Part shown: piece after piece, positions 326-31,882 of the stretch | Layout: every line of letters starts with the position of its first letter | Numbering within the stretch: position 1 is the first letter of the stretch | Assembly (NCBI GenBank): GCA_029838195.1 | Contig: JALGVJ010000024.1 | Coordinates: forward strand, 1 to 64,000 | Source: Promethearchaeota archaeon | GTDB lineage: Archaea; Asgardarchaeota; Lokiarchaeia; Sigyniarchaeales; SOKP01 | Reading direction: 5' to 3' | DNA: 64,000 nt | The notes under the pieces: model-generated | Database searches by the model: none | The model's input: only the letters and a program-made list of their open reading frames with translations | Told to the model about the DNA's origin: nothing | Translations under genes and position numbers: made by a program

Positions 326-434
326 GGCCCGGTACGGGAATTGAACCCGTCTCTAGGGATTTCTGCTCTGTTCAATTGCTCATTCTAAAAAATGATTCAC
401 AGTCCCCAATACTAACCACTATACTAACCGGGCC
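326..434 (-). tRNA. tRNA-His(GTG) with encoded G-1 and a 36-nt intron (361-396) at position 37/38
   Basis: Minus strand: G-GCCCGGT acceptor paired with ACCGGGC-C, anticodon stem GGGGA/TCCCT, loop CT-GTG-A|intron|A, T arm ACGGG-TTCAATT-CCCGT. BHB: CTGT/GCAG helix with GA|A and AA|A bulges. CCA is not encoded. Confidence 0.93.
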
Positions 435-21289: not shown

Positions 21290-22102
21290 TTATAGCCCTT
21301 TCGGACCTTGCTCGTAAATCTCATATGCTTCATCAACAGAGGCATTTTCGTGAACAATCGCTCGGACGGCTTGAATCATGCCTATCGGACTATCTGATTG
21401 AAAAATATTTCTTCCCATATCTACGCCTACAGCTCCCTTATCAACAGCATTTTTGGACATTTGTAAGGCGTCCCGCTCCGGAATCTTCTTACCTCCTGCA
21501 ATGACAATCGGCACCGGACAAATGCTCGTTACATCTTCAAAATTATCGCAATAATAGGTTTTTACAAAGGTTGCGCCCATTTCGGCAGCTAATCTGCTTG
21601 CCATGCCCAAATAGCGCGCATCTCTTACCATATCTCGTCCTACAGCTGTAACTGCAAGTACTGGAATGCCATATTCTTGCCCCCAATTGACCAATTTCGA
21701 AAGATTCATGATGGTCTGCTTTTCATACTCTCCTCCTACGAATATTGAACACGTAATCGCCGAAACGTTCAAACGAATTGCATCCTCGATCGTTACATTA
21801 ATTTCTTCATTAGATAGTTCCTTTAACATGCTCGCACCAGCTGAAACTCTTAAAACGATGGGAATGTCCGAGTCAGGGCTCACGCAACTACGGAGCATCC
21901 CTCTCGTGAGCATGAGAGCATCAGCATACTGAAATAAAGGTTCTAAATCTCCAAAGCATTTGAGTGTACCTGGAATGTTGCCAAAATATTCATGAACATG
22001 CATGAATCATGCACGTTTTCCATGATCTACGGCAAGCATCACGCAACGTCCCGTTTTAGGCTTTATAATTCTTGAAAGACGGTTTTGCATTCCCCAATCC
22101 AT
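21290..22102 (-). CDS. lsrF: LsrF-like class I aldolase/thiolase (DhnA/FbaB family); split gene, exon1 22102-22019, exon2 21988-21290, 260 aa spliced
   Basis: [28 protein letters not shown]|YFGNIPG..., [29 protein letters not shown]. Confidence 0.88.
21989..22018 (-). other. 30-nt BHB-type intron in the lsrF-like mRNA
   Basis: CATG/CATG 4-bp helix, bulges GA|A and AA|T, intron hairpin AACGTGCATG-ATT-CATGCATGTT, in-frame TGA; removal restores DHGYF. Confidence 0.88.
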
Positions 22103-22333
22103 TATATATCAACTTCCATGATGGTAATTTAATTTCTTATTTTTTTTTAATTATTTACTTATTTCTTATCATGCGTTCTTAATTTTAGTAATTTTACTTC
22201 ATTTTAAAATCTTAAGAGAAAAAAAATTAACAAAGGCATTAAACACACGTGCCTCAAATGATTTTAAAGGCATTGTCCTGAAAAGTTCTACTCTCAATAA
22301 AGAAAGAATGAGAAGAAAAAAAATCGAGGTGAG

Positions 22334-31256: not shown

Positions 31257-31882
31257 CTACTTTTCTCCCTCCTTTAATTTATTAAGAAATTCTTGAGCCT
31301 CTTTTTTTCCCAATTCAAATGCTTCTAAATTCTTTTCCAAAGCTGATTTGGGAACAAATTCTTTAATTGTCTCTATAGCGGCCTCCTCAGAAAAAAGCCC
31401 GGAGAGAACGGTAAACGCTCCAAACAAGATGGTGTTGCCATATACCCGATCCCCGAACTTTTCTAACGCCATTTTCTGAACCGGAATCGCCAACGATTTT
31501 ACTCGTGCCGCTGTCTTGAACTTGCTTATCGTGGAAGGATCCCATAATAAAAATCCCGTATCTTTTCCCTTCTTTAACTGATTTTTTTTGACATCTTTCG
31601 CCGCCTCCTCAGATAAAATGATCAAAAAATCATAGGGCTCCAAGGCTTTTGGATAATCTATGAGTTTTGTTTCCCTATCTCTATCCACCACGACCTCAGC
31701 CCAACATTTTCCTCCCCGTGCAGATGCTGAATAAGCTTCTGTTTGCGTGGCAGCCAAGCCCTCGTGGATAGCACTTGCCATGGTGATCATCTTCGAGAGG
31801 GTGATAACGCCATAGTCTTTAAGAGGATATCTCTTTAAATTTGACCACCAAACCCGGAAATCCTAATCTCATATCTGTCCAT
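31257..31882 (-). CDS. korC: 2-oxoacid:ferredoxin oxidoreductase gamma subunit; split gene, exon1 31882-31841, exon2 31811-31257, 198 aa spliced
   Basis: MDRYEIRISGFGGQ|GVITLSKMI..., AYSASARGG, NTILFGA, NLEAFELG; GAGGT SD upstream of 31882. Confidence 0.88.
31812..31840 (-). other. 29-nt BHB-type intron in the gamma-subunit mRNA
   Basis: GGTC/GACT 4-bp helix, bulges AA|A and AT|G, intron hairpin TTTAAAGAG-ATATC-CTCTTAAA; removal restores the frame and GFGGQGV. Confidence 0.88.

Follow-up and report, generated by a model that had tools for sequence, protein, structure and literature searches.

A 30-nt insert in the active-site motif of lsrF

The window analysed here is a stretch of 64,000 nucleotides, positions 1 to 64,000 of contig JALGVJ010000024.1 in assembly GCA_029838195.1 (4.5 Mb, 33.5% G+C), the genome of a Lokiarchaeial archaeon that we label G000. 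On its minus strand, at 21290..22102, lies an lsrF-like gene made up of two exons and a 30-nt insert, recognised by NCBIfam, structure and Pfam matches. Exon 1 (22019..22102, minus strand) opens with the ATG at 22102 and holds 28 codons; exon 2 (21290..21988, minus strand), delimited by translation and structure alignment, starts with YFGNIPG... and comprises 232 codons and the stop codon at 21290-21292. The 30 nt between them (21989..22018, minus strand) have the fold and the cut sites of an archaeal bulge-helix-bulge (BHB) intron, and their limits agree with the comparison of orthologues described below.

With the stop codon masked, the product scores 389 bits against the NCBIfam equivalog NF006081 (cutoff 297), has DeoC/LacD as its Pfam match and aligns to the crystal structures of E. 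coli LsrF with an E value of 1e-88, the sole sizeable gap of that alignment falling at the DHG/YF insert. The Schiff-base lysine, K203 of E. coli LsrF, is kept: FVKTYY aligns to IIKTYY, which in 4p2v, a deposited chain with the K-to-A mutation, is IIATYY. By these matches the host gene is a clear LsrF orthologue, a member of the 3-hydroxy-5-phosphonooxypentane-2,4-dione thiolase / DhnA-type class I aldolase family.

Read without splicing, the frame runs ...DHGKRA-stop, with ten codons (KRA-TGA-FMHVHE) between DHG and YFGNIPG, an in-frame TGA at 22009-22007 and a spurious ATG at 22003-22001. ORF calling yields two pieces, an ORF of 31 aa and another of 237 aa, the latter beginning at the ATG at 22003, within the insert. 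Taking out the 30 nt leaves a gene of 783 nt that encodes 260 aa from ATG 22102 and has the motif DHGYF back. An earlier note on this DNA had placed a 30-nt intron at 21989-22018, splitting the DHG-YF motif of an LsrF-like aldolase, and had predicted a stop after DHG-KRA in the unspliced reading, a 260-aa product with the family motif in the spliced one and a wrong start of the ORF track inside the intron. Sequence and coordinates bear this out in each respect, and DHGYF is indeed the motif of the orthologues.

The insert is single-copy in G000 and is not a repeated element, and an Rfam search at this position returned no group I or group II intron and no other family. G000 is a MAG with an estimated contamination of 7.9%, which would be the ground for suspecting an artefact of assembly or binning; against this, DNA contigs of two independent runs, from different studies, cover 21955-22123 gap-free with the insert in place, and four other assemblies have an insert at the same site. 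We regard such an artefact as exceedingly improbable.

The full hBHBh' motif, delimited by its fold and by pairing among the carriers, extends over 21978..22035 (minus strand). It consists of an exon-exon helix of 6 bp, one bulged U and a further 4 bp, then a central helix of 4 bp flanked by two 3-nt bulges, and an intron hairpin of 10 bp with a 3-nt loop. The 4 bp of the outer helix next to the bulge join AGAT (22028-22025) with ATTT (21987-21984), and the central helix joins CATG (22024-22021) with CATG (21994-21991). The 5' bulge is GAA (22020-22018) and the 3' bulge AAT (21990-21988); with a slash for the cut, they would be cleaved as GA/A (22019/22018) and AA/T (21989/21988). The inner helix pairs 22017-22008 with 22004-21995, including one G.U, around the loop ATT. 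All of these elements had been described in the earlier note, which did not contain the extra 6-bp exon-exon helix, TTGCCG (22035-22030) with TGGCAA (21983-21978). The layout is that of an archaeal pre-tRNA, with the 3' bulge beside the exon helix and the 5' bulge beside the intron helix, and cleaving each bulge behind its second nucleotide joins GGA to TAT in silico. Folding of the motif gives -22 kcal/mol (z = -3.5) and recovers the hairpin, the 3-nt 5' bulge and the central helix. The 4-bp exon helix by the bulge is weak (A-U, G-U, A-U, U-A), and in the unconstrained minimum free energy structure the register at the exon helix is shifted by 1-2 pairs, giving a helix of 6 bp and AAA as a bulge in place of a strict BHB.

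Strong motifs, in which the central helix is paired 4/4, the inner helix has 10 bp or more, the outer helix has 4 bp or more and the length is 26-40 nt (15 lengths), occur five times in 9.03 million genome positions, or at ~4e-8 per pre-specified cut pair, and the lsrF insert is among the five. Loose BHB motifs, for which 5 bp of inner helix suffice, are found in these genes at the background of shuffled sequences (30 observed vs 33.9 expected). Because BHB-like motifs of the loose kind reach background, the evidential weight lies in the lengths of the helices and in how exactly the cuts coincide with the boundaries needed to restore the frame.

Inserts and selection across lsrF orthologues

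A set of 60 related genomes together with a species-level genome collection yielded 92 distinct lsrF orthologues. About 69 are uninterrupted, 783 nt long and read DHGYF directly. Alignment with intron-less orthologues had been suggested in the earlier note as a check; it finds a translated 10-aa insertion in none of these ~69. The 30-nt insert (site 1) recurs at exactly the same place in five genomes of two genera, G000 and G001 belonging to one and G016, G030 and G004 to the other (loci L002, L003, L023 and L025 besides the window). The inserts have diverged in sequence and their flanks are conserved; the stop codon in the insert is TGA in G000 and TAA in the four others. The central helix is paired 4/4 in all five carriers, and across the motif 90% of cells are standard pairs, vs 21-49% for slid partners. 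Among the five carriers, three pairs of the hairpin have changed on both sides; the observed values are reached by 17-19 of 500 shuffles, so that the covariation support at site 1, coming from five related sequences, is modest.

One of the orthologues without an insert, at L009 (G013:C144:5208-5987), carries two in-frame TAA codons; it may be a real pseudogene or reflect sequence errors.

The comparison bears directly on recoding of the stop codon, by selenocysteine or read-through, which would give a protein with ten extra residues. The length of the site-1 insert is a multiple of three, the stop codon in G000 is TGA, and ARAGORN reports tRNA-SeC candidates in the genome. The other four carriers, however, have TAA and not TGA, the ten codons of the insert show no conservation at the protein level, the active-site motif is free of insertions in ~69 orthologues, and inserts at another site of the gene are 32 nt long. 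We give recoding next to no credence.

That other site is one of two further positions at which lsrF is interrupted. Site 2, AGG/KK, holds inserts of 30 or 36 nt in three genomes (L013, L025, L027), and site 3, GVD/MGR (MGRNIF), holds inserts of 32 nt, with one 30-nt variant, in ~10 genomes (L023-L028, L091, L100, L101, L104). Both obey the same BHB cut rule, and at L025 all three inserts are found in one 783-nt gene. At site 3, 94% of cells are paired and seven pairs have changed on both sides, a result that 0 of 500 shuffles match; at one pair of the central helix a synonymous change in the exon is matched by a change in the intron, that is, by covariation between exon and intron. The 32-nt insert of site 3 cannot be read by translating through it, because 32 nt shift the frame.

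A gap that the ribosome hops over, as in the programmed translational bypassing of T4 gene 60 or the byps of yeast mitochondria, would also leave the protein intact, and a short gap of 30 nt with a stop codon and a stable hairpin does look superficially like gene 60. But the take-off and landing codons differ (GGA stands before the gap, and the last codon of the gap, before TAT, is GAA), and the stop codon does not directly follow the take-off codon. Bypassing predicts neither two 3-nt bulges exactly 4 bp apart nor the exon:intron covariation of site 3, and inserts of the same shape are present in tRNA genes of G000, where no ribosome is involved. We therefore consider bypassing a poor candidate, with a probability of a few chances in a hundred at the very most.

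Removal of the inserts leaves an intact ORF of 260 codons in 14 of 14 interrupted lsrF genes, and no carrier has any other stop codon or frameshift. Between interrupted copies dN/dS is 0.05-0.07, at dS values between 0.75 and saturation. For exon 1 alone, pN/pS is 0.00-0.17 among the five site-1 carriers, with synonymous sites near saturation. By this measure the interrupted lsrF genes are functional and under strong purifying selection on both exons. These figures also weigh on the simplest alternative to splicing, namely that the insert is kept and that the gene is broken or makes only the 237-aa protein from the ATG within the insert. That ORF, starting at 22003, does exist and is what the ORF caller returns, and the orthologue with two in-frame stops but no insert indicates that pseudogenes of lsrF may exist. 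Set against this are the strong purifying selection in 5 of 5 carriers on exon 1, which would serve no purpose if the 237-aa ORF were the sole product, the lack of a further stop or frameshift in any of them, and the absence from a truncated product of two features kept by all orthologues, the DHG motif and the conserved N-terminal strand; a retained insert would also leave the BHB geometry, the compensatory changes and the 32-nt insert at site 3 unexplained. Retention of the insert is thus very unlikely, though it is the least improbable of the four alternatives to splicing considered here. From the comparison with ~90 related genes, the lsrF inserts almost certainly have to leave the mRNA.

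tRNA introns, splicing enzymes and a second interrupted gene

The window contains another gene with an insert of this kind, a tRNA gene at 326..433 (minus strand; Rfam RF00005, 47.8 bits) with a 38-nt intron in the anticodon loop. It was missed by ARAGORN when run without the intron mode, and it is a natural substrate for the machinery that would splice lsrF. A second tRNA of G000, recovered by our scanner at L159:113-234 (minus strand; contig C58), has a 22-nt intron and, in the T loop, a 30/31-nt intron of the same bulge-helix-bulge layout. The mRNA inserts thus have the size and shape of the tRNA introns of G000. Many tRNA genes of this genome contain introns. Motifs of the form gggg GTTC AA/N ... 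GAAC AA/N tccc are present on contigs C19, C50, C38 and C69 and may belong to multi-intron tRNAs; Rfam searches of two of these four gave no match. ARAGORN also predicts tRNA "introns" of 818, 1104 and 2401 nt and two tRNA-SeC candidates in G000.

Three matches to the EndA family (PF01974) are found in G000, at 100.7, 66.4 and 29.6 bits, two of them in ORFs of ~200 aa. Asgard archaea are reported to have an (alpha-beta)2 EndA with an L1 loop (PMC5829648), and the two ~200-aa ORFs are consistent with such an enzyme. Candidate loci for its alpha and beta subunits are C1:152191-152421 and C8:28388-28642. RtcB is present once, at 553 bits.

A second protein-coding gene of the window is interrupted. 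The gene for the gamma subunit of 2-oxoacid:ferredoxin oxidoreductase (OFOR gamma), on the minus strand, has its exon 1 at 31841-31882 and its exon 2 at 31257-31811, separated by a 29-nt, frame-shifting BHB intron at 31812..31840. The gene is split after codon 14, between GFGGQ and GVITLSK; the central helix of the intron is GGTC:GACT, and in sixteen orthologues GFGGQGVITLSKMI is uninterrupted. At L123, on contig C189 of G006, OFOR gamma has an unrelated BHB insert of 30 nt, with a central helix GCCA:TGGT, a 7-bp hairpin and an in-frame TAA, which lies 1 nt off the position of the G000 intron. This offset suggests either an independent gain or intron sliding.

Taken together, these data make it very probable that an archaeal BHB intron, spliced by EndA and RtcB, accounts for the 30 nt in the lsrF pre-mRNA of this Lokiarchaeial archaeon. 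The earlier note had likewise called the insert a BHB intron, and the reading is now backed by five carriers, two more sites, selection on the gene and the presence of EndA and RtcB in the genome. In the proposed mechanism, the RNA of exons and intron would fold in the transcript as helix-bulge-helix-bulge-helix. The tRNA-splicing endonuclease EndA would then cut both 3-nt bulges behind their second nucleotide, GA/A and AA/T, and the ligase RtcB would join the exons as ...GAT CAT GGA/TAT TTT GGC... (DHGYF), giving the 260-aa enzyme; the predicted spliced junction is GATCATGGA/TATTTTGGC. The intron would probably be freed as a small circle. Cleavage and ligation of the lsrF transcript in the cell are what we infer from sequence. 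In archaea translation is coupled to transcription, and splicing of an mRNA would have to compete with translation.

A census that makes no use of homology was taken over both strands of G000, in which BHB motifs of 16-100 nt (40,265 candidates) were scored for joining ORFs that are broken when unspliced. The true cuts gave 736 ORF-joining motifs vs 661-731 in eleven controls with shifted cuts, which is no excess, and stratification by helix strength, ORF length and intron length gave no excess either. The background of the census comes from hairpins between adjacent co-directional genes, and its thresholds left out N-terminal introns such as those of lsrF and OFOR gamma. Strong BHB motifs whose inner helix is 9 bp or longer are present in G000 at C6:47924-47953 (minus), C92:32893-32922 (minus), C22:163924-163954 (plus) and C87:116383-116420 (minus). 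Their removal leaves long open frames on one or two sides, and they are possible mRNA introns or mere in-frame hairpins.

Known mRNA splicing systems and a putative homing endonuclease

The closest known parallel is the BHB intron of cbf5, a pseudouridine synthase gene, in Crenarchaeota (Desulfurococcales and Sulfolobales), which is 16-44 bp long (Watanabe 2002; Yoshinari 2006; Yokobori 2009, PMC2738675). In 2009 no gene other than cbf5 had been confirmed to carry such an intron (PMC2738675), and in 2020 cbf5 was still given as the sole example besides an intron in a 5' UTR of Haloferax (PMC7714728). Like the cbf5 intron, which has been attributed to a heteromeric EndA, the lsrF insert is short, lies inside the coding sequence, interrupts a catalytic motif, has boundaries of BHB type and is present in some lineages and absent from their close relatives; some cbf5 introns, too, keep the frame. 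The differences are the host gene, the phylum (Asgard/Promethearchaeota) and the number of introns, with up to three at three sites of one gene. Splicing of cbf5 has also been shown experimentally, whereas that of lsrF is deduced from comparative data. We can rule out that we are looking at a homologous cbf5 intron: the host is lsrF of a Promethearchaeote, and cbf5 of G000 is uninterrupted (421 bits, no stops).

The BHB introns of archaeal tRNAs (Marck and Grosjean 2003; bioRxiv 10.64898/2026.10.13.758758) share the motif, the cut rule and the size of the lsrF insert. They differ in that the host RNA of lsrF is translated, so that removal must restore a reading frame. The tRNA-splicing endonuclease of Haloferax volcanii likewise acts on an mRNA, that of HVO_1309, as experiments in vivo and in vitro have confirmed; unlike the lsrF insert, the HVO_1309 intron lies in the 5' UTR and not in coding sequence, and the EndA of this euryarchaeon is homodimeric (PMC7714728). 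A similar process is the unconventional cytoplasmic splicing of HAC1/XBP1 in eukaryotes, in which Ire1 cuts the mRNA at two small stem-loops and tRNA ligase, or RtcB in animals, ligates it (PMC3400036). Here too a protein endonuclease cuts an mRNA, a ligase of tRNA type joins the exons and the reading frame is changed, but the endonuclease and the recognition motif are different, and HAC1/XBP1 splicing is a stress switch, of which lsrF gives no sign: we see no indication of regulation.

The tRNA genes of Asgard archaea are known to be heavily interrupted, and a two-subunit EndA is widespread among them, in a study that does not treat mRNAs (bioRxiv 10.64898/2026.10.13.758758). The literature we searched, outside subscription journals, described BHB introns within coding sequences of archaea for cbf5 alone and contained no report of mRNA introns in Asgard archaea and no experimental test of the substrate range of Asgard EndA. 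What appears new is a predicted BHB intron of a pre-mRNA in a new host gene and a new phylum, with several polymorphic sites per gene as an added feature. In this Lokiarchaeon, genes of ordinary metabolism (lsrF and that of an oxidoreductase subunit) would need splicing by the tRNA endonuclease, and the lsrF family has three intron positions that have been gained or lost between genera. If this reading is true, the archaea most closely related to eukaryotes would routinely rely on protein-only splicing of mRNA, which would bear on the tolerance of interrupted genes and on the separation of transcription and translation before the spliceosome. Standard gene callers would then systematically mis-annotate such genes, as with the truncated 237-aa ORF here, and the presence/absence polymorphism, together with a possible link to homing endonucleases, would offer a handle on intron gain.

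This possible link comes from two relatives, G030 and G006, in which a free-standing ORF of ~380 aa lies directly 3' of lsrF, between two copies of the last lsrF exon (L134:2207-3355 on contig C50 of G030, minus strand; L133:1316-2449 on contig C16 of G006, plus strand). The ORF matches phrog_4645, annotated "endonuclease", with E values of 1e-25 to 1e-28. Its structure model has a pLDDT of 83.5, and Foldseek ranks I-Tsp061I, I-SceI, I-DmoI and PI-PfuI at the top, with a probability of 1.00 and a TM-score of ~0.5 by target; of these, I-Tsp061I and I-DmoI are encoded by archaeal introns. There are two core motifs, and in LAFLLGFFDGDG the residues G, D and G are invariant. Sequence searches of Pfam, NCBIfam and the PDB gave no match, so the classification comes from PHROGs and the fold search, by which the ORF is a predicted LAGLIDADG homing endonuclease. 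The family is sporadic, occurring in 18 of 61 genomes, and was not found in G000, the site-1 carrier of the window.

The duplication in G030 has its edge exactly at the 3' splice site of the 32-nt intron at site 3. G035 has the last lsrF exon in a further, orphaned copy (L157:3619-3753, contig C84, plus strand), which starts within ~2 nt of site 3; a PIN/AbrB-like toxin-antitoxin pair precedes it, the ancestral neighbour gene follows it as in G006, and the functional lsrF of this genome is on another contig. On the gene tree, a quick one with many unresolved forks, similar site-3 introns and their carriers are scattered, and the well-supported branches of this quick tree force at least four changes of intron gain or loss. 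Elsewhere, too, copies of the endonuclease lie between duplicates of the 3' end of the host gene. At the edges of these duplications we find weak mini-intron candidates only, and in the clearest case, L153, where the helicase gene reads through motif VI, there is none.

An alternative for G030, a large BHB intron that would span the endonuclease gene and leave the second copy as the genuine exon, was rejected because TTGA, the 4 nt before that copy, cannot pair with the exon half GCGT. The layout in G030, G006 and G035 suggests that site 3 may be an endonuclease target. On account of that edge, of the orphan exon of G035 and of the scattered but alike introns at site 3, we propose, as a speculation with odds well against it, that the mini-introns of Asgard archaea are linked to homing endonucleases, either by spreading jointly with them ("collaborative homing") or as splice-able scars that make the target immune. 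At L139, L145, L151 and other loci, copies of the endonuclease are found inside open frames of 600-1100 aa, which may be inteins or fusions.
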